Assembly: GCA_016795345.1 (NCBI GenBank)
Contig: JAEUHO010000223.1
Span: forward strand, 1-43,166
Direction of reading: 5' to 3'
Source of the DNA: Planctomycetia bacterium
GTDB lineage: Bacteria; Planctomycetota; PLA2; JAEUHO01
Length of the DNA: 43,166 nt
Shown: positions 1,006 through 43,166 of the stretch, in pieces
Layout: the number at the start of each line of letters is the position of its first letter
Position numbering within the stretch: position 1 is the stretch's first letter
Made by a program: the position numbers and the translations under genes
Notes under the pieces: model-generated
Seen by the model: only the letters and a program-made list of their open reading frames with translations
Database searches by the model: none
What the model was told of the DNA's origin: nothing

Positions 1006-2333
1006 AGTACGCCGTCGGCATCGACCTCGGCTCCACCACGACGAAGGCCGTCGTCATCGGGACCGAGGGGCAGGTCCTCGGGCACGGCATCACCAACAGC
1101 CGCAGCAACTACGACCTGGCCTGCCAGGTCGCGCTCACCGAGGCCCTCATCCACACCCGCTTCTGCCTCGTCGAGTCGCAGCTCGCGGCCCGGGGCGTCG
1201 AGGGCCCGGCGGCCAAGCGCGTGCTGGCGGAGCTCGAGCTCCGCTTCCGCGAGCAGCAGTACCGCGGGCAGCTGCGCGTCCTCGACGCCGTCACCCGCCG
1301 GATGGCGGCGACGTCGCCGCCGGGGACGCTGGCGTCCCTCGACCGCGTCCTGGCGTCGATGGAGGCCGAGGTCGGCTCGCTCTTCACCCTCGGGGCGACC
1401 CGGAAGAGCGACTTCTTCCGCGACCTCGCCGGCGCGCGGTTCCTCTCGCTCGCCGAGGACGAGGCCCGCCGCTCGGGCGTGCGGTTCGAGGGCATCGTCG
1501 GGCTGTTCGACAAGGCCATCCTCGAGGTCGAGAACACCCCGTGGGACGGGGGCGCGTTCGAGAGCCAGATCGGCAACGCGCTCGCGAGCACGGCGTCCCG
1601 GACGCCGGAGCTCGACGCGGCCGTGCGCCGCGCCACCGACGTCCCCCTCGAGAAGATCGCGGCGGTGGGCACGGGCTACGGGCGGTCGAGGCTCCCGTTC
1701 CCCAAGGAACAGATCCGCTCCGAGATCCTCTGCCACGGGCTCGGCGCCCACGCGATGTTCCCGCTGACGCGGACCGTGCTCGACATCGGCGGCCAGGACA
1801 CGAAGGCCATCCAGGTGGACGAGCGCGGCATCGTGACGTCGTTCCAGATGAACGACCGGTGCGCCGCGGGCTGCGGGCGCTACCTCGGCTACATCGCCGA
1901 CGAGATGAACCTCGGCCTGCACGAGCTGGGCCCCCTGGCGCAGTCCTCGACGCGGTCCGTCCGCATCAACTCGACGTGCACGGTGTTCGCGGGGGCCGAG
2001 CTGCGCGAGCGGCTCTCCCTCGGCGAGAAGCGCGAGGACATCCTCGCCGGCCTGCACCGCGCGATCGTGCTGCGCGCCATGTCGCTGCTGGCCCGGAGCG
2101 GCGGCGTCAAGGACCAGTTCACGTTCACCGGCGGCGTCGCCAAGAACCCCGCCGCGGTGAAGGCCCTCCGGGGCCTGATCACGGAGAACTACGGCGAGCT
2201 GCGCATGAACATCTCGCCCGACTCCATCTACACCGGCGCGCTCGGCGCGGCGCTCTTCGCGCTCCGCGACGCGCAGGGGACCCCGATGCCGGAGCCCGCG
2301 CTCGCCACGAACGGAGGCACCCATGCCCACTGA
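1002..2333 (+). CDS. BcrA/BadF-like ATPase subunit (BcrAD_BadFG / 2-hydroxyglutaryl-CoA dehydratase activator family, long form of about 440 aa)
   Basis: N-terminal [18 protein letters not shown] (ASKHA phosphate-1 motif), [10 protein letters not shown], and [12 protein letters not shown] (cluster-bridging Cys region). The 443-aa length matches the A-type subunit, which carries an insertion. Confidence 0.8.
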
Positions 2334-3198
2334 CCCGACCCTCGCCGCCGCGCGCCACGGCACCGTCCGCACGGTCGGCCTCGACGTCGGCTCGTCCGCC
2401 GTCAAGCTGGTCGTGATGGAGGACGGCCCCGCGGGCCCCAAGCTCCTCGGCCACGTGACCGAGCGCCTGCGGCGCCGCGACCCCACGGCCGTCGCGGAGT
2501 CCGTCTTCCACGACGCGCTCGCGGGCCTCGGCCTCCGCCCGGACGAGCTCGCGTACGTCGCCACGACCGGCGAGGCCGAGGCGGTCGCGTTCCGCACGGG
2601 CCACTTCTACGGCATGACGACCCACGCCCGCGGCGCGCTCTTCCTCGACCCCGAGGCGCGCGCGGCCGTCGACATCGGCGCCCTGCACACCCGCGCGATC
2701 CTGATGGACGAGCGCGGCAAGGTGCTCGGCTACCGCATGACGAGCCAGTGCGCCTCGGGCTCCGGCCAGTTCCTCGAGAACATCTGCCGGTACCTCGGCG
2801 TCACCCTCGAGGAGATCGGCCCGCTCTCCGTCCAGGCCAAGACCCCCGAGAAGTGCTCGTCGATCTGCGCCGTGCTCGCCGAGACCGACGTCATCAACAT
2901 GGTCTCGCGCGGCATCGCGACGGCCGACATCCTGAAGGGCATCCACCAGTCGATGGCCGGGCGCTACCTCCGGCTGCTCGCCTCCGCGGGCCCGGCCGGG
3001 GTCGTCCTCGTCACCGGCGGCCTCTCGGCCGACATCGGCCTCGTCGCCGCGATGCGGGAGGGCACGGGCGAGATCAAGCAGAAGCTCGACATCCGCACGC
3101 ACCCGCACTCCGTGCTCGCCGGCGCCATCGGCGCCGCGCTCTGGGGCGCGTTCCGCGCGCGGAGGATGGCCGCGAAGGCGGTGGGGGGCGCCGCTTGA
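2323..3198 (+). CDS. BcrD/BadG-like ATPase subunit (BcrAD_BadFG family, short form)
   Basis: [25 protein letters not shown] and [13 protein letters not shown] motifs; 291 aa. It overlaps the upstream gene by 11 nt. Confidence 0.8.
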
Positions 3199-9633: not shown

Positions 9634-10851
9634 GTGAGGCTCCTCGGCCCCGACGGCGCCGTGCGGTGGCTCGCGTACGGCATGAACGTGCACGCCGGCG
9701 GGTCGCCCGAGGTCCTCGAGGAGGCCCTCCGCACCACCGTGGACCCCCTGCGGGAGCGGCTCGACGTGGACGGGCCGTTCGGGCTCGCCGTGCGGCTCGA
9801 CCGCGAGGGCGTCGAGGCGCTGCTCGAGGACGACGAGCGTTGCCGCCTCCTCGGCGACCTCCTGCGCGCGCAGGACCTCGTGCCCTTCACCGGCAACGCG
9901 TTCGTCGCCGGCGCGTTCCACGACGCGGGCACCAAGGCCGCGGTCTACCGCCCGACGTGGGACGACCCCGCGCGCGAGGCCTACACCCTCGGCTTCGCCC
10001 GCGTGCTCGCCGCCTGGTCGGCGCCGGGCGCCGAGGTGTCGCTCTCGACGTCGCCGCTCTCGTTCAAGCCCTTCGGCGACGGACCGGGCCTCGCGTCGGC
10101 GGCGGCTCGCCGCCTGGTCGCCACCGGCGCGGCCCTCGCCGACCTCGCCGACGAGACCGGGGTGAAGGTGCGGCTCGCGCTCGAGCCCGAGCCGCTCTGC
10201 ACGCTCGAGACGACCGACGAGACCGTCGCGTTCTTCACGGGCCCGCTCGCCGCCGCCCTCGAGGCGGCCCCCCGCGCCCGGGCCCACCTCGGCGCCTGCT
10301 ACGACGTCTGCCACCAGGCCGTCGAAGGCGAGGACCCCGAGGCGGGCCTCGCGGCGCTCGCGGCGGCGGGGATCGTCATCGCGAAGGTCCAGCTCTCCTG
10401 CGCGCTGGTCGTGCCCGACCCGTCGTCGCCCGCGCACCGCGCCGCCGTCGCCCGCTTCGACGAGGGCCGCTGGCTCCACCAGGTCGCCGCCGGCGGCGGC
10501 GCCGCGCCCCTGCGCCGCGCCGCCGACCTGCCCGAGGCGCTCGCGGGCCCCGACGCGGCCGCGTGGGCCGCGGCGGGCCCGTGGCGCGTGCACTGCCACG
10601 TCCCCGTCCACCTCGACGCGTTGACGCCGCCGTTGCGGACGACCCAGCCCGTCCTCGCGCGGGCCTTGCGTGCCGCCCTGCGGCCGGGCCTCACGTCGCA
10701 CCTCGAGATCGAGACGTACACGTTCGACGGCCTGCCCGCGGAGGTCCGTGCCGGCGGCCTCGTGGCCTCGCTCGCGCGCGAGTACGCCTGGGTGCTCGCG
10801 CGCCTCCGCGAGGACGGCGTCGTGCCCATGCCCGCCGAGGAGGAACCGTGA
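9634..10851 (+). CDS. Xylose-isomerase-like TIM-barrel protein, EboE-like
   Basis: LAYGMNVHAGGS, NAFVAGAFHDAGTKAAVYRPTWDDP, LEPEP, CYDVCHQAV and HCHVPVH resemble the EboE (metabolite traffic protein) pattern as I recall it. Confidence 0.62.
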   Translation: MRLLGPDGAVRWLAYGMNVHAGGSPEVLEEALRTTVDPLRERLDVDGPFGLAVRLDREGVEALLEDDERCRLLGDLLRAQDLVPFTGNAFVAGAFHDAGTKAAVYRPTWDDPAREAYTLGFARVLAAWSAPGAEVSLSTSPLSFKPFGDGPGLASAAARRLVATGAALADLADETGVKVRLALEPEPLCTLETTDETVAFFTGPLAAALEAAPRARAHLGACYDVCHQAVEGEDPEAGLAALAAAGIVIAKVQLSCALVVPDPSSPAHRAAVARFDEGRWLHQVAAGGGAAPLRRAADLPEALAGPDAAAWAAAGPWRVHCHVPVHLDALTPPLRTTQPVLARALRAALRPGLTSHLEIETYTFDGLPAEVRAGGLVASLAREYAWVLARLREDGVVPMPAEEEP

Positions 10852-11363
10852 GCGCCCGCCCGCCGATCCGCACCGTCCTCGTCGTCGTCTCGGACCGCGC
10901 GGCCGCGGGCACGCGGCCCGACGCGACCGCCGCGCTCCTCCGCCCCGTCCTCGCCGCCCGCGGCTTCGCCCTCGACGAGGTGGTCGTCGTGCCCGACGAG
11001 CGCGCCGAGATCGCCGCCGCGCTGCGCGCGCGGGTGGGGGCGTTCGGGCTCCTCCTCACCACCGGCGGCACCGGCGTCGCCCCGCGCGACGTGACCCCCG
11101 AGGCGACGCGCGACGTGATCGAGAAGGAGGTCCCCGGGCTGACCGAGGAGATCCGCCGGCGCAGCGCGGAGCGCACGCTCAAGGCGCTCGGGAGCCGCGC
11201 CGTCGCCGGCACCGTCGGGACGTCGCTCGTGCTGAACCTGCCCGGGCGGCCGGCGGGGGCGGTGGAGGCGTTCGAGTTCGTCGCGGAGGTCGTCCCGCAC
11301 CTCGTGGACCTGCTCCGGGGGCCCGTCCCGGACGCATCGCACGGGGGGGGACCGGTCGCCTGA
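10848..11363 (+). CDS. Molybdopterin adenylyltransferase / MoaB-MogA family protein
   Basis: LLLTTGGTGVAPRDVTPEAT and LNLPGRPAGA motifs. A GTG start overlaps the upstream stop (GTGA 10848-10851). Confidence 0.85.
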   Translation: MSARPPIRTVLVVVSDRAAAGTRPDATAALLRPVLAARGFALDEVVVVPDERAEIAAALRARVGAFGLLLTTGGTGVAPRDVTPEATRDVIEKEVPGLTEEIRRRSAERTLKALGSRAVAGTVGTSLVLNLPGRPAGAVEAFEFVAEVVPHLVDLLRGPVPDASHGGGPVA

Positions 11364-11370
11364 CCGGGGG

Positions 11371-11382
11371 ACGCGAGGCCCG
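11371..11382 (+). repeat. Dispersed 12-mer ACGCGAGGCCCG (forward copy), upstream of lipoprotein gene
   Basis: Exact match, intergenic. Confidence 0.8.
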
Positions 11383-11425
11383 GCCGCCTCCGCGGCGTAG
11401 GATGCACGGCTCGGAGGTCCCCCCC

Positions 11426-13216
11426 ATGCGCACCCGGCTGCCCGCCGGGCGGGGCGTCATTGCGACGCTCTTCGCCCTGTTCCTCGCCGCTTGCGGCACC
11501 TACAGCACGCACACCGACCCGATCTTCCGGGGCGTGATCGGGCCGGCCGGCGGGACCGTGGCCGCGGGCCCCGTGACCCTCGTGATCGCGCCGGGCGCGC
11601 TGCTCACCGACCTCTCGGTGGTCATCCTCCCGCAGCCCGACCCGCTGCCGATCGACCCGGCCGCCGGCGACGTCGACTACCTGCCGGGACTGCACTGCAT
11701 CGGCCCGGTCGGGCAGGGCCTCGCGCAGCCGTGCGTCGTCCGCATCTGCTACGACCCCGCCGACGTCCCGCCCGGCGCGACCCTCGCCGACCTCGTCCTG
11801 CTCGAGTGGGACGAAGCCGCGCAGCTCATGCGCGTGCGCGCGAGCGCGAACCACGACACGACGACGAACTGCTTCGAGGACACCTTCTACGGCGAGCTGG
11901 GCCACATCGGCGTCGGCGTGCGCACGCTGCAGTTCGACTTCGTCGTCGCGGCCGCGCCGCTCGTCGGCGGCGCGGGCGGCCGCGGCGCGAACGACCTCTT
12001 CCTCTGCGACAGCGGCGGCGGGGCGTCCCCCGTCGTCGTCCCGAACACCGCCGACGCGTTCTCGTACATCGCGTCGGGCGACGGCCGCTACGTGAGCTTC
12101 CTGCGGTCGGACAGCCAGGCCGAGACCAACGCGATCTTCGCCGTGGACGTCCTCGACGGCACCGAGGTGTTCGCGAGCGACCCGGACCTCTCGGTCCTGT
12201 CGCGGGACTCGCTGCACGGGTGGTTCCCCGGCCAGCCGACGAACCTCTTCTACACCCACGAGTTCGCCTCGAAGGGCTTCCAGCACATCCTCGCCGACGC
12301 CGACATCGGCGGCGCGGCCCACGAGAACCTGCGGGACGGCGACTTCGAGGAGTCGCTGATCGATGTCCGGATCTCGCCGGACGGGACCATGGCGATCCTC
12401 CGGTGGGAGGACTTCTTCGAGGGGGGGCAGTTCATCGACGTCGTCTCGACCTCGACCGGCGCGCTGCTCGGCGGCGACCTCCCCGTCCTCCCGAACGGCT
12501 TCCAGAGCCCGATGCCGCGCTGGTTGCCGGACTCGTCGGGGATCACCTTCGTGGACGGCGTCCTGCTGCGGCGGATCGACCGCGACGGCGACAACCTCGC
12601 CACGCTCTGGACCGCGCCCTCGCCGCTCCTCGACGCCGCCGTGGCCGACGGCTTCGTCGCCACGAACCCCGGCGTCGCCCGTGTCGCGTACGTCCGGACC
12701 ACCGGCTTCCAGATCTCGCCGGCCGGCGGGAACCAGTTCCCGACCACCTTCTTCGGCACGGACGTCCTCGCCGGCGGCGCGGCCGTCGAGCAGGACCTCG
12801 GCGGCATCTACGGGCTCGCGGAGCTGGCGTGGCACCCCGACGGCGCCACGGTCTGGTGCCAGCTGACCCAGTTCAGCCAGCTGATCGACGGCGGGTTCGG
12901 CGCCGTCATCGAGCCGCCGCCGTTCGCCTTCGAGTTCCTCGTCGCCTTCGACGCGGCGACCGCCTCCACGAACCGCGTGATCAACGCGCTCTTCGGCGCC
13001 ATGGACGTCGACAAGGTCTCGGGCAGGGTCCTGCTGTGGATGGAGTCGGCCTCGCAGGACGAGCAGTTCCCCGCGTCCGGCGTCTGGCTGCTGGACGCCG
13101 ACGGCACCGGCGGGACGAGCGTCTCGCTCGGCAACCTGGTCCCGATCGAGGCGCCGCGGTTCCTGGTCTCGTGGCGCAGCGGCGTCTGCGGGTCGTTCGG
13201 GTCGCTGGTTCGCTGA
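11426..13216 (+). CDS. Lipoprotein with TolB/PD40-like beta-propeller character
   Basis: Lipobox FLAAC after a basic N-terminus, with GGAGG 8 nt upstream of ATG 11426. PD40-like segments are present (SGDGRYVSFL, ISPDGTMAIL, WHPDGATVW). The function is unknown. Confidence 0.6.
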   Translation: MRTRLPAGRGVIATLFALFLAACGTYSTHTDPIFRGVIGPAGGTVAAGPVTLVIAPGALLTDLSVVILPQPDPLPIDPAAGDVDYLPGLHCIGPVGQGLAQPCVVRICYDPADVPPGATLADLVLLEWDEAAQLMRVRASANHDTTTNCFEDTFYGELGHIGVGVRTLQFDFVVAAAPLVGGAGGRGANDLFLCDSGGGASPVVVPNTADAFSYIASGDGRYVSFLRSDSQAETNAIFAVDVLDGTEVFASDPDLSVLSRDSLHGWFPGQPTNLFYTHEFASKGFQHILADADIGGAAHENLRDGDFEESLIDVRISPDGTMAILRWEDFFEGGQFIDVVSTSTGALLGGDLPVLPNGFQSPMPRWLPDSSGITFVDGVLLRRIDRDGDNLATLWTAPSPLLDAAVADGFVATNPGVARVAYVRTTGFQISPAGGNQFPTTFFGTDVLAGGAAVEQDLGGIYGLAELAWHPDGATVWCQLTQFSQLIDGGFGAVIEPPPFAFEFLVAFDAATASTNRVINALFGAMDVDKVSGRVLLWMESASQDEQFPASGVWLLDADGTGGTSVSLGNLVPIEAPRFLVSWRSGVCGSFGSLVR

Positions 13217-13246: not shown

Positions 13247-13810
13247 TCAGCGGACGCCGGCGTAGTACGTGCAGGCGGCGGCCAGCGTGGGCTGGATCCA
13301 CGGATCGACCTCGTCCACCTTGCCGGTGATCCGGAGGGTGACGAGGCCCGCGGCGGCGATCAGCACCACGAACGACTGCACGTGCTCGAAGAGCAGCGTG
13401 CTCGCGTCCGTCGGCGGCCGGACCTGGGCGAGGAACCAGCGGACGAGCACGCCGATCGCGAACGCCCCGACCACGATCACGAGGGGCTGCTGGCTCTCGG
13501 TGAGGCGGTGGTCCTTGAACCACAGCCAGGCCCCGTAGGAGATGGCCACGAGGAACAGGAATCGGACCGTGCCGGTCGGGAGGCCCAGCGGCGGCCTCGG
13601 CTTGGTGCCGTCGGCGGCGCTCCCGCTCACCACGACGTGGTCGCGCGACGCGCGGGAGGCGAAGTACGCCGCGGCGCAGACGAGCAGCGCGGCCCCGAGC
13701 CACGACGCGATCCCGCCGTCGGCCCGGAGGTCGAGGACGGCCCGCGCGGCGAGGGCGAGGAGCGTGAGGGCGCGGATGCTGCCGACGGGCAGGCCGAGGG
13801 GGCGCGGCAT
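13247..13810 (-). CDS. Integral membrane protein, unknown function (internal duplication RPLGLPxGxxR..L)
   Basis: ATG at 13810 with GGAGA upstream. There are about 5 hydrophobic helices. The N-terminal motif MPRPLGLPVGSIRAL recurs as KPRPPLGLPTGTVRFL. Confidence 0.6.
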   Translation of the reverse strand: MPRPLGLPVGSIRALTLLALAARAVLDLRADGGIASWLGAALLVCAAAYFASRASRDHVVVSGSAADGTKPRPPLGLPTGTVRFLFLVAISYGAWLWFKDHRLTESQQPLVIVVGAFAIGVLVRWFLAQVRPPTDASTLLFEHVQSFVVLIAAAGLVTLRITGKVDEVDPWIQPTLAAACTYYAGVR

Positions 13811-13959
13811 GGGCTTCTCCGTGGAGGCCCGGATCGTAGCGGCCCCGGCGGGGGCCGCCGACCGCCGGTCCGGCCCCGGCGGCGCGGGGGGGGCGGCGGG
13901 CAGCGACCGGCGTTGTGCTATCCGGCCGGCCCGGGCCCCGCTACCTTGACGTGCTGCCC

Positions 13960-16900
13960 ATGGACGCACCCGCCTACCGTCCGACGCACCCGGTCCGCTT
14001 CGTGACGGCGGCCGCGCTGTTCGACGGCCACGACGCCGCGATCAACGTCATCCGCCGCCTGCTGCAGGACAGCGGCGCCGAGGTGATCCACCTCGGCCAC
14101 AACCGCAGCGTCCTCGAGATCGTGCAGACCGCCGTGGACGAGGACGCGCAGGGCATCGCCATCTCGTCGTACCAGGGCGGGCACGTCGAGTTCTTCAAGT
14201 ACGCGAAGGACCTCCTGAAGGAGCTCGGCGCCGACCACGTCAAGCTGTTCGGCGGCGGCGGCGGCGTGATCGTCCCGGCCGAGATCGAGGACCTCGAGCG
14301 GTACGGCGTCGAGAAGATCTTCAGCCCCGAGGACGGCCGCCGGCTCGGCCTCCAGGGGATGATCGACCATATGATGCGGGCGGCCGACTTCGAGCCGCCC
14401 CGGCTCGTCCGCGGCGGCGGGGTCCCGCGCCTCGCGCCGACGGACCGGCGGCTCCTCGCGTCCGCCATCACCACCTCGGAGCGCGCGGGCTTCGCCGACA
14501 CCGAGCTCGGCCGGGCCGTCCGCGCCGCCGCGGACGAGCTGCCCCGCGACCGCCGCTCGGTCGTCGTCGGCGTGACCGGCACGGGCGGCGCCGGCAAGTC
14601 GTCGCTCTGCGACGAGCTCGTGCTGCGGTTCCTCGAGGGGACGGCCCCGGAGGCCGGCGGCCGCGGCGGCGCGACGGTGGCCGTGCTGTCGGTCGACCCG
14701 TCGCGGCGGCGCACGGGCGGCGCGCTCCTCGGCGACCGCATCCGCATGAACTCGATCCCGCACCCGCGGGCCTACATGCGCAGCCTCGCGACCCGCGGCG
14801 CGAAGGGCGAGCTGGCCGCCGCGACGCGCGACGCCATCCGGCTCTGCCGCCTCGCGGGCTTCGACTGGATCTTCGTCGAGACCTCCGGGACCGGGCAGGG
14901 CGACACCGAGATCGTGGACCTCTGCGACGTCTCGGTCTACGTGATGACGCCCGAGTACGGCGCGGCGTCGCAGCTCGAGAAGATCGGCATGCTCGACTTC
15001 GCCGACTTCGTCGCCGTCAACAAGGCGGAGCGCCGGGGCGCCGACGACGCGCTGCGCGACGTGCGCAAGCAGGTCCGCCGCAACCGCCGCCTCTTCGACG
15101 GGCCCGACGAGGCCCTCGGGGTGTTCGGCACCGTCGCGAGCCGCTTCTGCGACGCGGGCGTGGACGCGCTGTTCGAGGCCCTCGTGGCGAAGGTCGCCGC
15201 GAAGACCGGGCGCAGCGTCCCCGTCCGCCTGCCGTCCGAGGCCACGGACCCCCGCGCGCCCCACGCCTCGACGATCATCCCGCACGACCGGACCGGGTAC
15301 CTCGGCGAGATCTCGCGCACCGTGCGCGCTCACAAGGCGTGGGTGGACGAGCAGGTGCGCTACGTCCGCGACGTCGGGCACCTCGAGGGGGCCCGCGCCC
15401 TCGTCGCGCGGGAGGGCGCCGCCGCGGGCGCGCTCGACGCCGTCGAGCAGGCCCTCGCCCGCGCGCGGGCCCGCGTCGACGCCAAGGCCCGCGCCGCCCT
15501 CGACGCCTGGCCGGCCCGCAAGGCCGCGTACCTCGCGGACGCGCTCTCGTACGGGGTCCGCGACCGCGCCGTCGAGCTGCCGACGTTCACCCGGAGCCTC
15601 GCGGGCACGCGCATCCCCAAGGTGGCGCTCCCGACGTCCGACGAGCCCGGCGAGGTGCTGCGGTTCCTGCTGCTCGAGAACCTGCCCGGCCAGTTCCCGT
15701 ACACCGCGGGCGTCTTCCCGTTCAAGCGGACCGACGAGGACCCGAAGCGCCAGTTCGCGGGCGAGGGCCCGCCCGACCGCACCAACAAGCGCTTCCACTA
15801 CCTCTGCCGCGGCGAGGCCAGCAAGCGCCTCTCGACGGCGTTCGACTCCGTGACGCTCTACGGCGAGGACCCCGCCGAGCGGCCCGACATCTGGGGCAAG
15901 ATCGGCGAGAGCGGCGTCTCCATCTGCACCCTCGAGGACATGGCGCGCCTCTACGCCGGCTTCGACCTGTGCGACGCGAACACGTCGGTCTCGATGACGA
16001 TCAACGGGCCCGCGCCCATCCTGCTCGCCATGTACATGAACACGGCGTTCGACCAGCAGGTGGACGCCTTCCGGGCGCAGCACGGGCGCATCCCCGACCC
16101 GAAGGAGCACGCCGAGCTCCTCGAGCGGACCGTCCGGACCGTCCGCGGGACGGTGCAGGCCGACATCCTCAAGGAGGACCAGGCCCAGAACACCTGCATC
16201 TTCTCGACGGCGTTCGCGCTGCGGATGATGGGCGACATCCAGCAGTGGTTCATCGACCACGAGGTCCGCAACTACTACAGCGTCTCGATCTCGGGCTACC
16301 ACATCGCGGAGGCGGGCGCGAACCCGGTCACGCAGCTCGCGTTGACCCTCGCCAACGGCTTCACCTACGTCGAGTACTACCTCGCGCGCGGGATGAAGGT
16401 GGACGACTTCGCGCCGAACCTGTCGTTCTTCTTCAGCAACGGCCTCGACCCCGAGTACACGGTGATCGGGCGCGTCGCCCGCCGCATCTGGGCCGTCGCC
16501 ATGCGCGACCGGTACGGCGCCAACGACCGCAGCCAGAAGCTCAAGTACCACGTGCAGACGTCGGGCCGGTCCCTCCACGCGCAGGAGATCCAGTTCAACG
16601 ACATCCGCACCACCCTGCAGGCGCTGCTGGCCCTGCAGGACCACTGCAACTCGCTGCACACGAACGCCTACGACGAGGCCATCACGACGCCGACGGCGGA
16701 GAGCGTGCGCCGCGCCATGGCGGTCCAGCTGATCTGCACCAAGGAGTACGGCTGGCTCCGCGCCGAGAACGCCCTCCAGGGCTCGTACTTCGTGGACCGG
16801 CTGACCGACGCGGTGGAGGAGGCGGTCCTCGACGAGTTCCGCCGCCTCGACGAGCGGGGCGGGGTGCTCGGCGCCATGGAGACGCAGTACCAGCGCGGGC

Positions 16901-17247
16901 GCATCCAGGAGGAGAGCCTCCTGTACGAGCGCATGAAGCACGACGGCTCGCTGCCCATCGTGGGCGTGAACACGTTCCTGCCGGAGCAGGCCGACGGCGC
17001 CGTGCCCCGCCAGATCGACCTCTCGCGCGCCACGCTCGAGGAGAAGCGGCTGCAGCTCGACCGGCTGCGCGACTTCCAGGGCCGGCACGCCGCGGCGACG
17101 CCCGGCGCGCTCGAGCGCCTGAAGCGGGTCGCGCGGTCCGGCGGCAACGTCTTCGCCGAGCTGCTCGCGACCGTCCGCGTGGCGTCGCTCGGGCAGATCA
17201 GCCACGCGCTCTACGAGGTCGGCGGGAAGTACCGCCGGAACATGTAG
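13960..17247 (+). CDS. icmF: Fused isobutyryl-CoA mutase (B12-binding domain + MeaB-type G-protein + mutase catalytic domain)
   Basis: N-terminal B12 domain (DGHDAAINVI, GGGGVIVP), P-loop GVTGTGGAGKSS with VNKAERRG (NKxD), and mutase core (FPYTAGVFPFKR, TINGPAPILLAMY, HIAEAGANP). About 1095 aa from ATG 13960. Confidence 0.93.
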   Translation: MDAPAYRPTHPVRFVTAAALFDGHDAAINVIRRLLQDSGAEVIHLGHNRSVLEIVQTAVDEDAQGIAISSYQGGHVEFFKYAKDLLKELGADHVKLFGGGGGVIVPAEIEDLERYGVEKIFSPEDGRRLGLQGMIDHMMRAADFEPPRLVRGGGVPRLAPTDRRLLASAITTSERAGFADTELGRAVRAAADELPRDRRSVVVGVTGTGGAGKSSLCDELVLRFLEGTAPEAGGRGGATVAVLSVDPSRRRTGGALLGDRIRMNSIPHPRAYMRSLATRGAKGELAAATRDAIRLCRLAGFDWIFVETSGTGQGDTEIVDLCDVSVYVMTPEYGAASQLEKIGMLDFADFVAVNKAERRGADDALRDVRKQVRRNRRLFDGPDEALGVFGTVASRFCDAGVDALFEALVAKVAAKTGRSVPVRLPSEATDPRAPHASTIIPHDRTGYLGEISRTVRAHKAWVDEQVRYVRDVGHLEGARALVAREGAAAGALDAVEQALARARARVDAKARAALDAWPARKAAYLADALSYGVRDRAVELPTFTRSLAGTRIPKVALPTSDEPGEVLRFLLLENLPGQFPYTAGVFPFKRTDEDPKRQFAGEGPPDRTNKRFHYLCRGEASKRLSTAFDSVTLYGEDPAERPDIWGKIGESGVSICTLEDMARLYAGFDLCDANTSVSMTINGPAPILLAMYMNTAFDQQVDAFRAQHGRIPDPKEHAELLERTVRTVRGTVQADILKEDQAQNTCIFSTAFALRMMGDIQQWFIDHEVRNYYSVSISGYHIAEAGANPVTQLALTLANGFTYVEYYLARGMKVDDFAPNLSFFFSNGLDPEYTVIGRVARRIWAVAMRDRYGANDRSQKLKYHVQTSGRSLHAQEIQFNDIRTTLQALLALQDHCNSLHTNAYDEAITTPTAESVRRAMAVQLICTKEYGWLRAENALQGSYFVDRLTDAVEEAVLDEFRRLDERGGVLGAMETQYQRGRIQEESLLYERMKHDGSLPIVGVNTFLPEQADGAVPRQIDLSRATLEEKRLQLDRLRDFQGRHAAATPGALERLKRVARSGGNVFAELLATVRVASLGQISHALYEVGGKYRRNM

Positions 17248-24164: not shown

Positions 24165-24602
24165 GTGTCGGCCCGCGTCCCCACGACCCTCGAGATCCTA
24201 CCGCGCCTCCGGATCCCGGGGAGCGAGATCGTCCTCACCTACGCCGCGTCGAGCGGCCCGGGCGGCCAGAACGTCAACAAGGTCGCGAGCAAGGCGGTCC
24301 TCCGGTGGAGCGCGCGGGACTCCGTCGCGCTCCGGCCGGACGACCGCGCGCTGATCCTCGGCCGCCTCGCCTCCCGGCTCACGACGGAGGGCGAGCTGGT
24401 CCTCGCGTGCGACCGCCACCGCGACCAGGGGCAGAACGTCGAGGAGGTCCTCGAGCGGCTGAAGGACGTGCTGCGGGCGGCGCTGCACCGCGAGGCGCCG
24501 CGGAAGAAGACCCGCCCGACGCGGGGCTCGAAGGAACGCCGGATCGCCGGCAAGCGGCGGCGGTCGGACGTCAAGCGCGGCCGGCGCGACGCCGGGGAGT
24601 GA
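24165..24602 (+). CDS. arfB: Alternative ribosome-rescue factor ArfB (peptidyl-tRNA hydrolase, GGQ domain + basic tail)
   Basis: SSGPGGQNVNKVASKAVLRW, and a basic C-terminal tail (RKKTRPTRGSKERRIAGKRRRSDVKRGRR). Confidence 0.9.
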   Translation: MSARVPTTLEILPRLRIPGSEIVLTYAASSGPGGQNVNKVASKAVLRWSARDSVALRPDDRALILGRLASRLTTEGELVLACDRHRDQGQNVEEVLERLKDVLRAALHREAPRKKTRPTRGSKERRIAGKRRRSDVKRGRRDAGE

Positions 24603-24713
24603 CGCCGGGGAGCGATGTCGGGGCGGGGGCCTCGGCGCCTCGCCGCCGCGCACCCCCCGCAGCCCGACGGCCGGGCGCGTAAGATCGCGCGACGCTCCCC
24701 CGGAAGCCCCCCG

Positions 24714-27239
24714 ATGCGCCGTGCTCCGCTGCTCGCCCTGGCCGCCGCCCTGACCCTCCTCGCCGTCGCCGGCCGCCCGGTCGCCGGGGACGACGTCCCC
24801 AGGATCCGGTCGGTCACGCCGGGGTCGGCGTTCCGCGGCGGGACCGTGGACATCGTGATCGAGGGGCAGAACCTCCACCCGTACGACGAGCTCAAGTGCA
24901 GCCGCAGCGACGTCTCCGTGTCGCTCCAGCCGGGGCCGACGCCGTCGAAACTGGTGCTGCGCCTGGTGATCCCCGACACGACCCCGGCCGGGCCGCTCAC
25001 CCTCACGATCCGCACGAAGTCCGGCGTCGTGAAGACCGAGAAGTTCGCGGTGAAGTTGCGGGCGCCCGCCGTGACGAAGGTGACCCCCGCGCAGCTCGTG
25101 CGCGGGGCCGAGTACGACCTCCGCCTCGAGGGCACCTACCTCGCGTTCCCGGGCGAGGAGCCGCGGGTGACCGCCGAGGCCCCGATGGTCGCGAAGCTCA
25201 CGGGCCGGCCGTCGGAGCGGGCCATGAGCGTGCGGCTCACCGTCCCCGCCGAGACGCCCGTGGGCTCGCGCGCCGTGACGATCGAGACGTCGGACGGCAA
25301 GTTCACGCTGAACGTGACGGTCCTGTACGCCGTCCCGGCGGTGACCGCGCTGACGCCCGCCGCGACGCCCCGCGGCGCGACGACCGAGGTCGTCGTCGCC
25401 GGGAAACACCTCTCCGGGGCCAAGGACGTCCGGCTCGCGGTCGACGACCCGGGCGTCGTCGTCGCCGCGGCGGGCGCGCCCACCGCCGCCGCCGTGCCCC
25501 TCAAGATCGAGGTGAAGCCCGACGCCGCGCCGGGCCCGCGGGTCCTCGTGGTCCGCACGCCGGACGGCTGGGTGACGCGCCCGTTCGAGGTCACGACGCC
25601 CGCGCCCGCCCTGACGGCGCTGAAGCCCGCGGGCGTGGCCCGCGGCGCCGCGACGAACGTCGCGCCCACGGTCGAGCGGGCGCCGGGCGACTACCAGCTC
25701 CGCGTCCTCCCGGCCGACCCGGCGATCACCGTCGAGCGCCAGCCGTCGGGGGCGTGGTCCGTCGCCGCCGCCGCCTCCGCGGCGCCCGGGCCGCGCACCG
25801 TCGTCCTCGACCACGTGTTCGGCGCGGCGGTGGGCACGTTCACCGTGTCGCTGCGCTCGCCCACCGTCGTCGGGTTCACGCCGAGCGAGCTCGCGCCGGG
25901 CGCGGAGGCCGACGTCGCGTTCGAGGGCCAGTGGCTCGACGGCGCCGAGATCGGCCTCGCGTCCGACGACCCGTCCGTCGCGGTGACCCCGAAGGCGCCG
26001 GGCGTGGTGCACGTGAAGGTGTCCGCCGACGCGAGGCCCGGTCCGCGGCCGATCGTCGTCCGCACGGCCGACGGCGCCGCCGTCGTCGCGTTCGGGATCA
26101 AGGGCGCCGGCGCGTCGGGGCCCTCGGTGACGTCGGTGCTGCCGGGGCGCGTGCCCCGCGGCGCGCCGACCGAGGTCGTGCTCGCCGGCGTGAACCTGCG
26201 CTCCGCCGGCGACCAGGCGCCGACGGTGACCGCGACCCTCGGCGGCGTCGCGATCCCCGCGTCGGTGGTGGCGTCGAACGCGGCGTCCGTGAAGGTCCGC
26301 CTCGAGGCGCCGGCCGACGCGCCCGCGGGCGGGTGTGTGATCGTGGTGCGCACGTCCGACGGCGCCGCCGCGGGCGTCACGACCGTCGCGCCGGCCATCC
26401 CGACCATCGCCGGCGCCACCGCGACGCCCTCGTCGCGCCCCGGCGACCTCGTCGTCGTCGTGACCGGCACGGACCTCGTCGGGCCCGGCGGGGCCGCCCC
26501 GACGGTCGTCCTCGCGAAGGCCGACGGCAGCGACCCCTGGCCCGCGGTGGTGTCCGCGGCGGCCCCGACGAAGCTGACCGTCGCGGTCCCGGTGACGGCG
26601 GCCGCCGTGCCGGGGCCCCGCGTCCTCGTCGTCACGACGAGCGAGGGCGGCGCCGCGGTGCCCGTCGCCGTGCCCGCCGCCGTCCCGGAGATCACGGCGC
26701 TCGACCCGGTCACCGTCGGCATCCCCGCGAACCTCGTGGTGACCGTCACGGGCCGCAACCTCCTCGGCCCGGCGGGCGCGAAGCCCGTCGTCGTCGTGAC
26801 CCGCCTCGGCGCGCCCGCGACGATCCGCAGCGACCTGCTCGAGGCCACCGCCACCTCGCTCAAGGTGCGGGTGATCACCCCCCCGGGCACGCCCGCGGGC
26901 ACCCACGTCCTCACCGCGAAGACCGCCGACGGCACCGCCGCGGGCCTGTTCGAGATCGTGAACGCCCCGATGCCGACGATCACCGGCCTCGCCCCGGCCG
27001 CCGGCCCCCGGCTCGCGACGGTGACCGTCGCCCTCGAGGGCACCGGCCTCCTCGGGTTGTCGGGCGTCGCGTTCTCCGGCGAGGGCGTGACCGCCGCGAT
27101 CCAGCCCGGGGCCACCGACACGAAGGTGATGCTGCGCGTGACCGTCGCGAAGGACGCGGCCCCCGGCGCGCGGACCGTCACCGTGACGGCGCCGGGCGGG
27201 ACCGCCACGGGCGGCAAGCTCGTCTTCGTCGTGGAGTGA
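24714..27239 (+). CDS. Secreted/surface protein built from about 9-10 tandem Ig-like (IPT/TIG-type) domains
   Basis: Signal peptide MRRAPLLALAAALTLLAVAGRPVAG. Modules of about 85 aa recur, each beginning P.(I/V)T.(L/V).P...(P)RG and containing AAPGPR.(L/V)VV(R)T(P/S)DG. Confidence 0.7.
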   Translation: MRRAPLLALAAALTLLAVAGRPVAGDDVPRIRSVTPGSAFRGGTVDIVIEGQNLHPYDELKCSRSDVSVSLQPGPTPSKLVLRLVIPDTTPAGPLTLTIRTKSGVVKTEKFAVKLRAPAVTKVTPAQLVRGAEYDLRLEGTYLAFPGEEPRVTAEAPMVAKLTGRPSERAMSVRLTVPAETPVGSRAVTIETSDGKFTLNVTVLYAVPAVTALTPAATPRGATTEVVVAGKHLSGAKDVRLAVDDPGVVVAAAGAPTAAAVPLKIEVKPDAAPGPRVLVVRTPDGWVTRPFEVTTPAPALTALKPAGVARGAATNVAPTVERAPGDYQLRVLPADPAITVERQPSGAWSVAAAASAAPGPRTVVLDHVFGAAVGTFTVSLRSPTVVGFTPSELAPGAEADVAFEGQWLDGAEIGLASDDPSVAVTPKAPGVVHVKVSADARPGPRPIVVRTADGAAVVAFGIKGAGASGPSVTSVLPGRVPRGAPTEVVLAGVNLRSAGDQAPTVTATLGGVAIPASVVASNAASVKVRLEAPADAPAGGCVIVVRTSDGAAAGVTTVAPAIPTIAGATATPSSRPGDLVVVVTGTDLVGPGGAAPTVVLAKADGSDPWPAVVSAAAPTKLTVAVPVTAAAVPGPRVLVVTTSEGGAAVPVAVPAAVPEITALDPVTVGIPANLVVTVTGRNLLGPAGAKPVVVVTRLGAPATIRSDLLEATATSLKVRVITPPGTPAGTHVLTAKTADGTAAGLFEIVNAPMPTITGLAPAAGPRLATVTVALEGTGLLGLSGVAFSGEGVTAAIQPGATDTKVMLRVTVAKDAAPGARTVTVTAPGGTATGGKLVFVVE

Positions 27240-27309
27240 GCCGGATCCGCGCCGCTGTCCCGGTCCGGTGGAACGTGGGTACCATCCTCCGGGGTCCCCG
27301 GAGCCAGTC

Positions 27310-28236
27310 GTGACCGATCCTCGCCGTCCCGCGCGCGCCGCGTCCCGTCTCGGGGCCGCGACCCTCTTCGCCGTCCTGGCCGCCTGCGGCGGCGGCGGTG
27401 GGGGCGGCGGCGGCGGGACGACCGAGGCGCGCGACCTCGCGAGCGTCACCCCGGACGGCGCGTCGGCCGCCGTGAACTCCGGCGCCGGCGACTTCGCGGC
27501 GGACTACCTGCGGCGGACCAACTTCACCTCCCTGCTCGTCGAGGTGGACTACCCCGTCGGCCGGCCGCCGAGCCCGGGCGTGCTCCAGCTCCTCGAGGAC
27601 CGCCTCGCCGAGCGGTGCGACAAACCCGACGGCGTCCACATCCTGCTCGACGACGCCATCCCCCTCGTCGAGTTCCCGGCGTCGGTCAACGTCGTCGACC
27701 TCGACGACCTCGAGGCGGCGCACCGCGACAACTTCGCGGACCTCCCGACGCGCGAGGCCGTCCTCTACATCCTGTACGTGAAGGGGCAGAGCGACCTCGG
27801 CGGCGCCGGGACGCAGGTCCTCGGGCTCACCTACCACGGCAGCAGCGTGGCGCTGTTCGTCGACGCGGCGCAGAGCAGCGGCTTCGGCGTCACGACCGCG
27901 GAGGTCGAGGGCACGGGCCTCGTCCACGAGGCGGGGCACTGCCTCGGCCTGACGGGCTCCACCGTGCCGATGCTGGTGGACCACCGCGACGAGCTCCACG
28001 GCTACCACGACGTCGACGAGGCCTCGGTGATGTACTGGATCGTGTCGGTGCCGAACGTGGCGCCGAACCTCGGCGACCCCGACTTCGCCCAGTTCGACGC
28101 GAACTCCGTGGCCGACCTCGAGGCCTTCGGCGGGCTGGGCCCGCTCCCCGCGTTCGTGGGCACGCCGCGGGTCACGTCGCCGGACGACCTCTTCCCGGTG
28201 GCCACCTGCCGCACGTGCCGCCAGCACCGGCGCTGA
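27310..28236 (+). CDS. Lipoprotein, putative metzincin-like zinc metalloprotease
   Basis: The GTG start gives the lipobox VLAAC followed by a poly-Gly linker. VHEAGHCLGL matches HExxHxxG, with a possible Met-turn in SVMYW. The third His of the canonical metzincin motif is not present, so activity and family are uncertain. Confidence 0.55.
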   Translation: MTDPRRPARAASRLGAATLFAVLAACGGGGGGGGGGTTEARDLASVTPDGASAAVNSGAGDFAADYLRRTNFTSLLVEVDYPVGRPPSPGVLQLLEDRLAERCDKPDGVHILLDDAIPLVEFPASVNVVDLDDLEAAHRDNFADLPTREAVLYILYVKGQSDLGGAGTQVLGLTYHGSSVALFVDAAQSSGFGVTTAEVEGTGLVHEAGHCLGLTGSTVPMLVDHRDELHGYHDVDEASVMYWIVSVPNVAPNLGDPDFAQFDANSVADLEAFGGLGPLPAFVGTPRVTSPDDLFPVATCRTCRQHRR

Positions 28237-39464: not shown

Positions 39465-40064
39465 ATGGACGCCCGACTCTTCCTCGCCGCCCTCCGAGAC
39501 GTCCGACCGGACGTCCGCCATCGGTACGCCGACGGCATCCGCGCCGGGGAGAAGGGCGGGCAGCCGGTCCCGGGCATCTGGCGGCTGTTCGCGTTCAAGC
39601 CGGCGCTGGCCGACCGGCTCGGGCCGCTCGCCCAGGAGATCCTGCGCGGGCCGTCGCCGCTCACGCCCGGGTTCCGCGAGCTGATCGCGGCCTTCGTCTC
39701 GTCGCGGAACCACTGCCTGTTCTGAACGTCGGCCCACGCCGCGGTCGCGGCGTTCCTCCTGAAGGACGAGCCCCTGGTGGCGGCGGTGTGCCGCGACCTC
39801 GCCACGGCGCCGGTCTCCGAGCCGGAGCGCGCGCTCCTCCGGTACGTCGAGAAGCTGACGCTCGCGCCCGCCACGTGCTGCCAGGCCGACGTCGACGGGC
39901 TGAAGGCGCACGGATGGGACGACGAGGCGGTGTTCGACGCCGTGACGGTGACGGCCCTGTTCTCGTTCTTCAACCGCTGGATCGACGGCAACGGCGTCGC
40001 CGACACGCCGCCGGGCTTCTACGCCGAGCGGCTGAAGGCCATGGGCGACTTCAAGTACGCGTGA
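39465..40064 (+). CDS. AhpD/carboxymuconolactone-decarboxylase (CMD) family 'peroxidase-related' protein with an in-frame TGA (39723-39725), read here as selenocysteine (CxxU)
   Basis: Track ORFs 39465..39725 and 39777..40064 are in the same frame and are separated only by one TGA. The joined 199-aa protein reads ...RELIAAFVSSRNHCLF[TGA]TSAHAAV..., which is the family CxxC..H redox motif with the second Cys position encoded by TGA. GC3 stays high across the junction. A SECIS-like hairpin follows. Confidence 0.6.
39736..39753 (+). promoter_or_regulatory. Candidate bacterial SECIS hairpin
   Basis: ACGCCGC-GGTC-GCGGCGT, a perfect 7-bp stem starting 10 nt after the TGA. The apical loop GGUC begins at nt 21 counted from the U of UGA. 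As I recall, the E. coli fdhF SECIS apical loop is also GGUC at about the same distance. Confidence 0.45.
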
Positions 40065-41642: not shown

Positions 41643-42491
41643 CTACTTGCCTTCGCCGTCCGTCCCGCCGGGGGCGCCGTCGTCCATCGGCGCGGGCTCC
41701 GGCGTCGCGGGCTTGGCGGCCTCGTCCTTCTTGGGCGTCGTGCCGCTCGCCGCGTCTTCCTTCTCCTTCGCCTGCGTCTCCTCGAGCGCCTTCGCGCTCG
41801 CCTTGACGCCCTGCGCGATCACGACCTGCGCCGCCGCGGCGGGCAGCAGGAAGCTCTTCGTCCAGCGCGGGCCGTCCGACACGCCCTGCTGCTGGATCAT
41901 CACGCCGGCGAACTTGCCCGCGCCGGTGAACAGCGGGCTCGCGAGCGCCCACGCGCCGGAGGGCAGCCACATGTCGCGCGGCTTCTTCACCTGCCCGACG
42001 ATCTTCACGGTGCCGTAGTACGGCGCGTAGTCGAAGCCGTCCTCGAGGCGGGAGACGCCGAACAGCTCGTCGCCGACCTTCACCTCGCCGGCGTCGGCGG
42101 GGTTGACGGGCGCGATCGCGCGTCCGGTCGTGTCCTTGATGCGGAAGAACGCGAGCCCCAGCCGGCTGTCGAACGCGCCGAGGATCGCGTCGTACTCCTT
42201 CTCGTCGCCGGGGAACACGACGCGCGCGCTCACGAGGGCGACCTTCGCGCCGCCGCGCGTGTTGCCGAGCCCGGTGGTCATCACGACGCCGCTCGGGTCC
42301 ACGAGGGTCCCCATCCGCTCGGAGGCGTTCTCGAACTCGCCGATCTTCGTCACCAGCTTCAGCACCACGACGGAGGCCGCCTTGGTGTCGAGTTGCTGGG
42401 CGTAGGCCGGGTCGTCGGCATGGACCGACGTCGGGCAGGCGAGGGGGCCGGCGAGCAGCGCGGCGGCGAGAGCGAGGGGGGCGAAGCGCAT
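41643..42491 (-). CDS. Secreted protein, distant trypsin/HtrA-like fold guess, acidic/Lys-rich C-terminal tail
   Basis: ATG at 42491 with AGGAG upstream, and signal peptide MRFAPLALAAALLAGPLA. Segments loosely recall S1C proteases (GTLVDPSGVVMTT, LGLAFFRI, GDELFGVS), but I cannot identify a His-Asp-Ser triad. Confidence 0.45.
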   Translation of the reverse strand: MRFAPLALAAALLAGPLACPTSVHADDPAYAQQLDTKAASVVVLKLVTKIGEFENASERMGTLVDPSGVVMTTGLGNTRGGAKVALVSARVVFPGDEKEYDAILGAFDSRLGLAFFRIKDTTGRAIAPVNPADAGEVKVGDELFGVSRLEDGFDYAPYYGTVKIVGQVKKPRDMWLPSGAWALASPLFTGAGKFAGVMIQQQGVSDGPRWTKSFLLPAAAAQVVIAQGVKASAKALEETQAKEKEDAASGTTPKKDEAAKPATPEPAPMDDGAPGGTDGEGK

Positions 42492-42609
42492 CCGGGGGTA
42501 CTCCTGGTCCTGCAGCCTACGCCACCCCGCGGTGATGGGGGTGGGCCCCTCCTTCTCGGCCGTCGGCCCCCCGGACGTGAGGCGGCCGCCGCCGGAGTGG
42601 GGGACGGGG

Positions 42610-42630
42610 CGGGCCTCGACCCGAGGCCCG
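42610..42630. repeat. Perfect palindrome CGGGCCTCG-acc-CGAGGCCCG (inverted pair of the dispersed motif core)
   Basis: 9-bp stem with a 3-nt loop. It lies between the tRNA-like copy 1 and the start of the 41643..42491 gene. Confidence 0.85.
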
Positions 42631-42663
42631 GTCGGGGAGGGGGGCTCCACCGGCCGAGGCGCC

Positions 42664-42744
42664 GCGGCCTTCGTGGTTGCGGGGGCGGGAGTCGAACCCG
42701 CGCGGACCGTCGGTGGGGCCGGCGGTCTTGAAGGCCGGTTGGAC
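42664..42744 (-). repeat. tRNA-like 3' segment, copy 1 (T-arm + acceptor 3' strand + CCA; RNA part 42674-42744); no matching 5' acceptor strand immediately upstream
   Basis: The minus strand reads GUCCAACCGGCCUUCAAGACCGCCGGCCCCACCGACGGUCCGC-GCGGG-UUCGACU-CCCGC-CCCCGCA-A-CCA. It is identical over 81 bp to 43086-43166. Confidence 0.7.
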
Positions 42745-42750
42745 GGCGAC

Positions 42751-42762
42751 CGGGCCTCGCGT
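42751..42762 (-). repeat. Dispersed 12-mer (reverse copy) abutting the upstream edge of tRNA-like copy 1
   Basis: Exact match. Together with 42622-42633 it forms a 12-bp inverted repeat (cgaggcccggtc / gaccgggcctcg) bracketing copy 1. Confidence 0.8.
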
Positions 42763-43064: not shown

Positions 43065-43095
43065 CGAAGGCCGCTGCTTGTGGCAGCGGCCTTCG
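43065..43095 (-). terminator. Intrinsic-terminator-like hairpin immediately 3' of tRNA-like copy 2
   Basis: Perfect 13-bp stem CGAAGGCCGCTGC / GCAGCGGCCTTCG with a 5-nt loop. On the minus strand it is followed by CCAUUUCUAG, the most AT-rich spot in the region. Confidence 0.55.
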
Positions 43096-43166
43096 TGGTT
43101 GCGGGGGCGGGAGTCGAACCCGCGCGGACCGTCGGTGGGGCCGGCGGTCTTGAAGGCCGGTTGGAC
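43086..43166 (-). tRNA. tRNA-like gene, copy 2, truncated by the window edge (3' part only visible, CCA at 43096-43098). Possible class II tRNA; the loop CUUCAAG would give anticodon UCA (tRNA-Sec-like), but the anticodon stem is non-canonical
   Basis: GGTTCGACTCC T-arm, a 7-nt acceptor strand, discriminator A, encoded CCA, and a terminator hairpin directly downstream. CUUCAAG lies at the distance from the 3' end expected for a long-variable-arm tRNA. The 5' half lies outside the window. Confidence 0.4.

Follow-up and report, generated by a model that had tools for sequence, protein, structure and literature searches.

When an open reading frame (ORF) is broken by one stop codon at the very place where its protein family carries a redox cysteine, is it a damaged gene, two genes, or one gene in which the stop codon is read as an amino acid? 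This question is raised by positions 39465-40064 (+) of a 43,166-nt stretch of DNA, called here the window, which is a complete contig of a metagenome-assembled genome (MAG) labelled Planctomycetia bacterium at NCBI, with a GC content of 75%. From the analyses described below we consider it very probable that the locus is one gene, encoding a selenocysteine (Sec)-containing AhpD-like thiol/selenol oxidoreductase. An earlier note on this DNA, made from the sequence alone, had proposed a mis-split selenoprotein with a CxxU motif, and this proposal now finds support in the protein family, the alignment column of the TGA, the selection acting on the gene, the distribution of similar genes, the selenocysteine insertion sequence (SECIS) and the literature.

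One reading frame with a single internal TGA

The locus contains two ORFs in one common frame, 39465..39725 (86 aa, ATG start) and 39777..40064 (95 aa, GTG start). These two ORFs are what the public gene callers predicted in all sources, and they were deposited as two 'peroxidase' proteins, MBL9087060.1 and MBL9087061.1. Translation of 39465-40064 meets only one stop before the end, the TGA at 39723-39725 within the peptide ...FVSSRNHCLF*TSAHAAVAAFLL..., and so bears out the statement that only one TGA parts the two frames. Read through, the gene has 199 sense codons, including UGA as the proposed Sec at codon 87, and ends in a second TGA at 40062-40064. The size of 199 aa had been called normal for the family, and the cysteine-containing (Cys-form) homologues are indeed mostly single chains of about 200 aa. 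The two database ORFs are parted by 17 unannotated codons (39726..39776), all 17 with G or C in the third position and with conserved residues running through them, so that their description as coding-like also held. They encode part of the catalytic helix, including His91, which follows the TGA but precedes the GTG annotated as the second start, and they also carry the putative SECIS.

The joined product belongs to the CMD/AhpD fold family

For scoring against profile hidden Markov models (HMMs) the TGA position of the joined protein was written as Cys. On TIGR01926 of NCBIfam ('peroxidase-related enzyme'), where the cut-off is 81.8 bits, the protein reached 104.1 bits, with residues 34-172 matching profile positions 28-167 of 178, and it also matched Pfam CMD, in agreement with the AhpD/CMD assignment of the earlier note. 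There were 522 homologues in the protein database, most of them about 200 aa long and 45-55% identical. When 27 full-length homologues were aligned, the TGA fell on the second Cys of N-x-C-x-F-C-x-x-S-H, a column where Cys is kept in at least 90% of the 27, and the alignment thus places Cys where the second redox Cys had been expected. Residues E72, N82, H91, A93, A95 and L98 are invariant in this alignment, and C84 and C87 nearly so. Because H91, A93, A95 and L98 all lie after the TGA, conservation spans the 'gap' between the two database ORFs; compared with the 68%-identical homologue at locus L052 (see below), 16 of the 17 gap residues are identical.

The segment E72-x11-C84-x-x-U87-x3-H91 (39678..39737) matches the pattern of the AhpD-type proton-relay signature, Glu-x11-Cys-x-x-Cys/Sec-x3-His, with E72, C84, U87 and H91 at conserved columns and the in-frame UGA as the last position of the C84-L-F-U87 redox motif. 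A profile made from the family alignment matched solved structures of 'peroxidase-related'/AhpD proteins, 2pfx, 6k40, 3c1l, 2oyo and 2prr, with E values of 1e-24 to 1e-29. AlphaFold2 models the joined sequence as a single all-helical domain (predicted local distance difference test 88, predicted template modelling (TM) score 0.86), and a Foldseek search with this model returned 2pfx, 3c1l, 2prr, 6k40 and 2oyo at TM scores of 0.67-0.77 and E values of about 1e-8 to 1e-7. The break between the ORFs falls within the catalytic helix-turn-helix of the model, and therefore the two halves are not independent domains. We conclude that the joined product is a CMD/AhpD-fold member of the TIGR01926 family. 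Since the wider family, as seen with both the profile and Foldseek, includes the debrominase Bmp8, 'peroxidase' is to be taken as a family label and not as a demonstrated activity.

The TGA persists and the sequence after it is under selection

The same TGA was found between the same half-proteins in eight other contigs, from different samples and sources and with about 99% nucleotide identity, and therefore it is not a sequencing error. Relatives were reached through cluster members of the N-terminal half; an exact-record look-up of the 335-aa ORF at 41643-42650 (-) returned none. Four relatives showed 91-93% nucleotide identity, L236 (GCA_046350655.1), L237 (GCA_964268455.1), L238 and L239, and by blastn L236, L237 and L239 are syntenic with the window (L238 was left out of that alignment). 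All four retain the TGA, the frame and the full length, with no frameshift or second stop. A sequencing error and a strain-specific nonsense mutation were among the findings that, according to the earlier note, would speak against a selenoprotein; both were checked, and the same TGA is present in 12 other assemblies.

Comparison with the four relatives gave a ratio of nonsynonymous to synonymous substitution rates (dN/dS) of 0.04-0.06 for the part 5' of the TGA and of 0.09-0.14 for the 112 codons 3' of it. The low ratio and the intact frame 3' of the TGA mean that this part is translated and constrained. The 48 nt directly 3' of the TGA are identical in the relatives, whereas the rest of the gene has a dS of 0.17-0.35. 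With the 68%-identical homologue at L052 the ratio was 0.35-0.54, a value that is poorly informative because a GC content at third codon positions (GC3) near 0.99 depresses dS. A global reassignment of the stop codon was also considered and is ruled out, given that TGA ends most genes here, terminating 23 of 28 other high-GC3 ORFs of the genome.

TGA forms occur in at least six phyla

One genome per species was scanned with a degenerate DNA pattern, E-L-I-A-A-x5-N-x3-[FY]-TGA-x3-H, which has one match in the window and none in 100 shuffles. The scan found at least 120 loci with TGA at the Cys column; from base frequencies we estimate that chance would account for about one. In total there are at least 121 further TGA forms; all 121 of those listed read C-x-[FY]-U, and in nearly all of these the frame stays open for 107-125 codons after the TGA. 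They come from at least six phyla, including Acidobacteriota, Gemmatimonadota, Planctomycetota, Myxococcota (Corallococcus), Desulfobacterota, Proteobacteria, Chloroflexota and others, and when homologues are ranked by similarity to the window protein the TGA and Cys forms are interleaved.

The closest among the matches listed is L052, from a Planctomycetota MAG, which is 68% identical and shares ...NHCLFUTSAHAAVAAFLLKD... with the window protein. The window gene has as neighbours a divergent ClC channel gene with a CBS domain and a gene for a TrmB-type methyltransferase, and at L052 a divergent long ORF also lies alongside, of ClC-like size (678 aa versus 681 aa in the window, a likeness by size).

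Another Planctomycetota MAG (L039, WSZJ01000062.1) has tandem TGA paralogues, with TGA at 6439 and 7046, about 600 nt apart, and each of these AhpD-like paralogues has its own CxxU motif and its own hairpin.

A hairpin conserved at synonymous sites

The hairpin ACGCCGC-GGUC-GCGGCGU, which the earlier note had described as perfect and starting 10 nt after the TGA, is present as described at 39736-39753 (+). It has a 7-bp stem, ACGCCGC/GCGGCGU, an apical loop GGUC at 39743-39746 and a folding energy of -12.5 kcal/mol when folded alone, and it covers the codons His91-Ala-Ala-Val-Ala-Ala-Phe97. Counted from the U of UGA it spans +14 to +31, with the GU of the loop at nucleotides 22-23. The essential G23 and U24 of the Escherichia coli fdhF SECIS lie within a stem-loop beginning 11 nt after the UGA (PMC8659212), and the fdhF-like loop and spacing that the earlier note had named are therefore matched closely. 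Both are stem-loops within the ORF, 10-11 nt after the UGA, with a GGUC loop containing the GU recognised by SelB; they differ in that the loop is one nucleotide nearer to the UGA in the window copy and that the window copy has no extended lower helix.

Because Rfam gave no bacterial SECIS match on the window, the SECIS was tested by comparison. We took the 77 TGA forms with the peptide HAAVAA among the matches listed and, as a control, searched metagenomes for Cys forms in which this peptide also occurs, which gave 107 loci, 86 of them unique. In the 77 TGA forms the register of the hairpin equals that of the window, with the consensus CGCCGC-[GGUC|AGUU]-GCGGCG. Their six hairpin codons are nearly fixed (CAC in 73, GCC in 76, GCG/GCA in 61/16, GUC/GUU in 60/16, GCG in 76 and GCG in 66), whereas the 86 Cys forms use all four bases at the same third positions. 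Both wobble stem pairs are formed in 88% of the TGA forms versus 9% of the Cys forms (Fisher p = 3e-26), and the third-position entropy over the six codons is 0.1-0.8 bit in the former versus 0.9-1.95 bit in the latter. The flanking codons are equally variable in the two sets.

The peptide A-A-V-A-A (GCN GCN GUN GCN GCN) alone dictates four of the six core pairs, and it is the pairs not fixed by the protein that vary in a compensated manner. In an alignment of 74 sequences 98.1% of the cells are paired, and two-sided changes are found at all three protein-unfixed pairs (C-G/U-A/U-G; C-G/U-A; G-C/A-U). The loop is GGUC in 60 and AGUU in 16 TGA forms, with GU invariant and with positions 1 and 4 covarying as G..C (60) or A..U (16), as if forming a closing pair around GU. 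Synonymous sites frozen in the TGA forms alone, together with these compensatory changes, lead us to the conclusion that the hairpin at 39736-39753 is, as judged from comparative sequence data, a selected SECIS.

In the 48 nt that follow the TGA of L009-L128, each of three subfamilies has its own SECIS type: CGCCGC-[GGUC/AGUU]-GCGGCG in the main group, GCUGCUC-CGUGA-GAGCAGC in the CFYUT group and GUGCCAUGG..CCAUGGCAC in the Desulfobacterota-type group (L009, L026, L122). The CFYUT and L009 subgroups thus have different hairpins at a similar distance from the TGA.

Proposed mechanism and alternative explanations

We propose that the hairpin at 39736-39753 would serve as the binding site of SelB loaded with Sec-tRNA(Sec), so that UGA-87 would be decoded as selenocysteine instead of stop. 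The predicted product is an all-helical CMD/AhpD-fold protein of 199 residues in which a selenol would take the place of the second Cys of the CxxC motif and would cycle between the selenol/thiol state and a selenenylsulfide with Cys84. Its role might be the direct reduction of hydroperoxides or the re-reduction of a partner protein, for instance a peroxiredoxin. What the sequence data show are the gene structure, the selection and the SECIS signature; the dependence of Sec insertion on SelB in this organism, the redox chemistry of the enzyme and its substrate in the cell are inferred.

Several observations weigh against this proposal. Resampling of synonymous codons with the codon usage of the genome produced a 7-bp stem in 27% of draws and the stem with a GGUC or AGUU loop in 8%, and since chance recoding yields a similar structure in 8-27% of cases, the perfect hairpin taken alone, as in the earlier note, does not carry the argument. 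Folding of the 68 nt after the UGA gave z = -1.2, with a different long-range hairpin as the minimum free energy structure; single-sequence folding is uninformative in a genome with 75% GC. Compared with fdhF, the window hairpin is without an equivalent of the bulged U17 and has a perfect, G+C-rich stem of 7 bp. No selA, selB, selD or tRNA-Sec was found in the 43-kb contig (Pfam on 25 ORFs, ARAGORN and Rfam), and the Sec-decoding trait of the organism is suggested, rather than directly observed, by the SECIS signature and by the complete Sec-insertion gene sets reported in several Planctomycetes (PMC4807772). Finally, no peroxiredoxin/AhpC partner was found in the window, where the link to a peroxiredoxin that defines an AhpD in the functional sense, as reductant of AhpC, is thus not seen, and the enzymatic role is read from family resemblance. 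With regard to the Sec machinery, the 20-kb syntenic loci of the relatives also had no sel genes or selC, and no tRNA-Sec was found within the 8-kb flanks of 120 TGA-form loci; selC is therefore unlinked to the TGA forms, and this last search is uninformative on the presence of the machinery.

Could the gene simply be broken? A TGC-to-TGA nonsense mutation at the catalytic Cys needs one base change, and a pseudogene whose downstream part is decaying would agree with the public annotation as two short 'peroxidase' proteins (MBL9087060.1 and MBL9087061.1) and with the contig in which no Sec machinery was seen. Decay is nevertheless at odds with a TGA fixed in 12 other assemblies, including relatives that are about 8% divergent, with no frameshift or second stop, and with a dN/dS of 0.09-0.14 after the TGA. 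A pseudogene is made very unlikely also by the at least 121 further, independent loci with TGA in this column, of which nearly all keep the downstream ORF intact, and by the hairpin synonymous sites that are frozen in TGA forms alone. We find it extremely unlikely that the locus holds two genes or a split protein, that is, an 86-residue and a 95-residue peptide that perhaps reassemble non-covalently, even though this is exactly what the gene callers predict in all public sources and a GTG start is available at 39777. The 17 gap codons, with invariant residues including the catalytic His91, would be lost; the internal start is not conserved, with a second ORF of 92 aa versus 95 aa in close relatives; in the model the joined sequence folds into one compact domain, and the break lies within its catalytic helix-turn-helix; and the Cys-form homologues are single chains of about 200 aa.

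A different possibility accepts the read-through and not the selenium. The UGA could be recoded by near-cognate insertion of Trp or Cys, or by SelB-delivered Cys-tRNA(Sec), with the hairpin as a stimulator of read-through. A stable hairpin after a stop codon can generally promote read-through, and no Sec machinery was observed in the contig. On the other hand, the hairpin has the features of a SelB-type SECIS in its distance from the UGA, its invariant GU and its 4-nt loop identical to that of fdhF; the family is documented as a selenoprotein family; and the UGA replaces a redox-active Cys, the classic Sec/Cys pair. We therefore regard recoding to an amino acid other than Sec as very unlikely, and a Sec-containing AhpD-like oxidoreductase remains our preferred explanation.

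A tRNA-like element downstream

The earlier note had also drawn attention to a tRNA-like element with a UCA-containing loop about 3 kb downstream. The element is there, at 42678-42760 (-), with a T-arm, an acceptor 3' strand with CCA and the UCA-containing loop. With default ARAGORN settings and Rfam gathering thresholds the window has no tRNA, tRNA-Sec or curated RNA family. At a relaxed threshold of 80% ARAGORN drew a 'tRNA-SeC' at 42678-42760 with two acceptor mismatches, and with Rfam RF01852 (tRNA-Sec), whose gathering score is 47, the element reached 14.6 bits. A direct repeat of 84 nt (42661-42744 and 43083-43166) supplies the element as one of its copies, and in L236 and L237 the sequence recurs in tandem units of about 420 nt that end at an intact tRNA-Met(CAT). 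The tRNA-Met of these relatives has a C1xA72 end and a ...CCCCCGCAACCA tail, and is of the initiator type by sequence reading. We rejected selC for the element, which is a pseudo-copy of the 3' end of initiator tRNA-Met, and it therefore lends no support to the selenoprotein claim. The 3' end of a tmRNA, suggested by an 18-nt T-arm match (E = 6e-4), was rejected as well, the acceptor, as read from the sequence, being without G3:U70 and the element matching the 3' end of the relatives' initiator tRNA-Met.

The two copies of the 84-nt repeat are 99% identical and 422 nt apart, the contig ends inside the second copy, and the repeat carries a terminator-like hairpin after the tRNA 3' part. In the close relatives there are at least three units of about 420 nt with a 303-nt sub-period (L236 13812-15590; L237 ~13740-14763), an array that could have arisen from serial integration scars or from unequal crossing-over. 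Just before the array in L236, at 13714-13755 of a 733-kb contig, there is a poly-G run of 42 nt, probably an assembly or sequencing artefact.

Comparison with known systems

AhpD-like selenoproteins are known, as the earlier note had stated. The family (COG2128, CxxU) was described in 2005 from the Sargasso Sea metagenome with 27 sequences (Zhang, Fomenko & Gladyshev, PMC1088965), was the fourth most abundant selenoprotein family in the Global Ocean Sampling metagenome with 299 sequences (Zhang & Gladyshev 2008, PMC2398784), and is entered as 'AhpD-like protein, TIGR01926, CxxU' in the table of a 2026 review (PMC13188914). The window gene shares with these proteins the HMM family, a CxxU motif with Sec second, widespread Cys homologues and a SECIS hairpin with a small G-containing apical loop directly after the UGA. 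Nothing substantive differs, other than that the window copy comes from a Planctomycetia MAG with 75% GC and is filed as two 'peroxidase' ORFs. The family being already known, the present result is a correction of annotation and not a discovery.

The proton relay of AhpD proteins comprises Glu118, Cys130, Cys133 and His137 in Mycobacterium tuberculosis AhpD (Rv2429) and Glu36, Cys48, Cys51 and His55 in Pseudomonas aeruginosa PA0269 (PMC3141380). The window protein shares with both the CMD/AhpD helical fold and the Glu-x11-Cys-x-x-Cys-x3-His spacing, and has Sec in place of the second Cys (Cys133 in the M. tuberculosis numbering). The third relay residue, His132 in M. tuberculosis AhpD and Tyr50 in PA0269, is Phe86 in the window protein, and in contrast to these two systems there is no ahpC neighbour at the window gene. 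The window protein belongs to another subfamily, with TM scores of 0.3-0.5 to 1knc and 1gu9 versus about 0.7 to 2pfx and 6k40.

Two further NCBIfam (seleno)protein groups share the CMD-type domain and CxxU, the AhpD_rel_CFYUT group NF041238 (the Sargasso Sea 'hypothetical protein 1') and the YciW-related group NF053654, and the TGA pattern used above also found members of them, such as L011, L025 and L031. The window protein is not a member of either, scoring 36.5 bits versus a cut-off of 175 for NF041238 and 24.3 versus 310 for NF053654; their N-terminal extension is longer, and their SECIS hairpin differs from that of the window gene.

Implications

A single selenoprotein entry should replace the two records MBL9087060.1 and MBL9087061.1, as well as their counterparts in at least 12 related assemblies, and the result marks this Planctomycetia lineage as a probable user of selenocysteine. 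A simple degenerate DNA pattern was enough to find at least 120 unannotated TGA forms in one-genome-per-species data, and the TGA set with its matched Cys set is an unusually clean natural control for SECIS selection at synonymous sites. The result leaves existing knowledge of selenoproteins unchanged, AhpD-like CxxU proteins being already among the most abundant selenoprotein families of metagenomes.

Perhaps the codon palindrome of Ala-Ala-Val-Ala-Ala, within the conserved H-A-A-V-A-A peptide of the catalytic helix, pre-adapts the family for a switch from Cys to Sec, an idea that we put forward tentatively and would sooner doubt than accept. Only three wobble positions and two covarying bases that flank the loop would need tuning, so that a TGC-to-TGA change and a few synonymous changes would suffice. 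If true, this would explain why TGA forms are numerous, occur in at least six phyla and are interleaved with Cys forms. We have not met the idea in the literature on the family, although no search was aimed at it.

Other features of the window

No second TGA-interrupted candidate was found in the window, where the other high-GC3 read-throughs are adjacent genes in the same frame or antisense overlap. One pair flagged by the read-through scan consists of a small RF-1-domain (ArfB-like) gene at 24165-24602 (+), which ends in TGA, and a gene at 24615-27239 (+) that follows after 12 nt in the same frame; there is no evidence that these are other than two adjacent genes. Three high-GC3 ORFs had no Pfam match at E <= 1e-4, at 10670-13216 (+; 848 aa), 13247-13969 (-; 240 aa) and 27268-28236 (+; 322 aa).

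At the other end of the window, 16-3198 (+) holds a gene for the D-component of 2-hydroxyacyl-CoA dehydratase (HGD-D) followed by two genes for BcrAD/BadFG-type ATPases. This suggests a radical dehydratase or a benzoyl-CoA-reductase-like module, the usual sign of an anaerobic lifestyle. An ORF of 1110 aa at 13915-17247 (+) encodes fused B12-binding, MeaB GTPase and methylmalonyl-CoA-mutase domains, a mutase/chaperone architecture that we take to be of the IcmF type.

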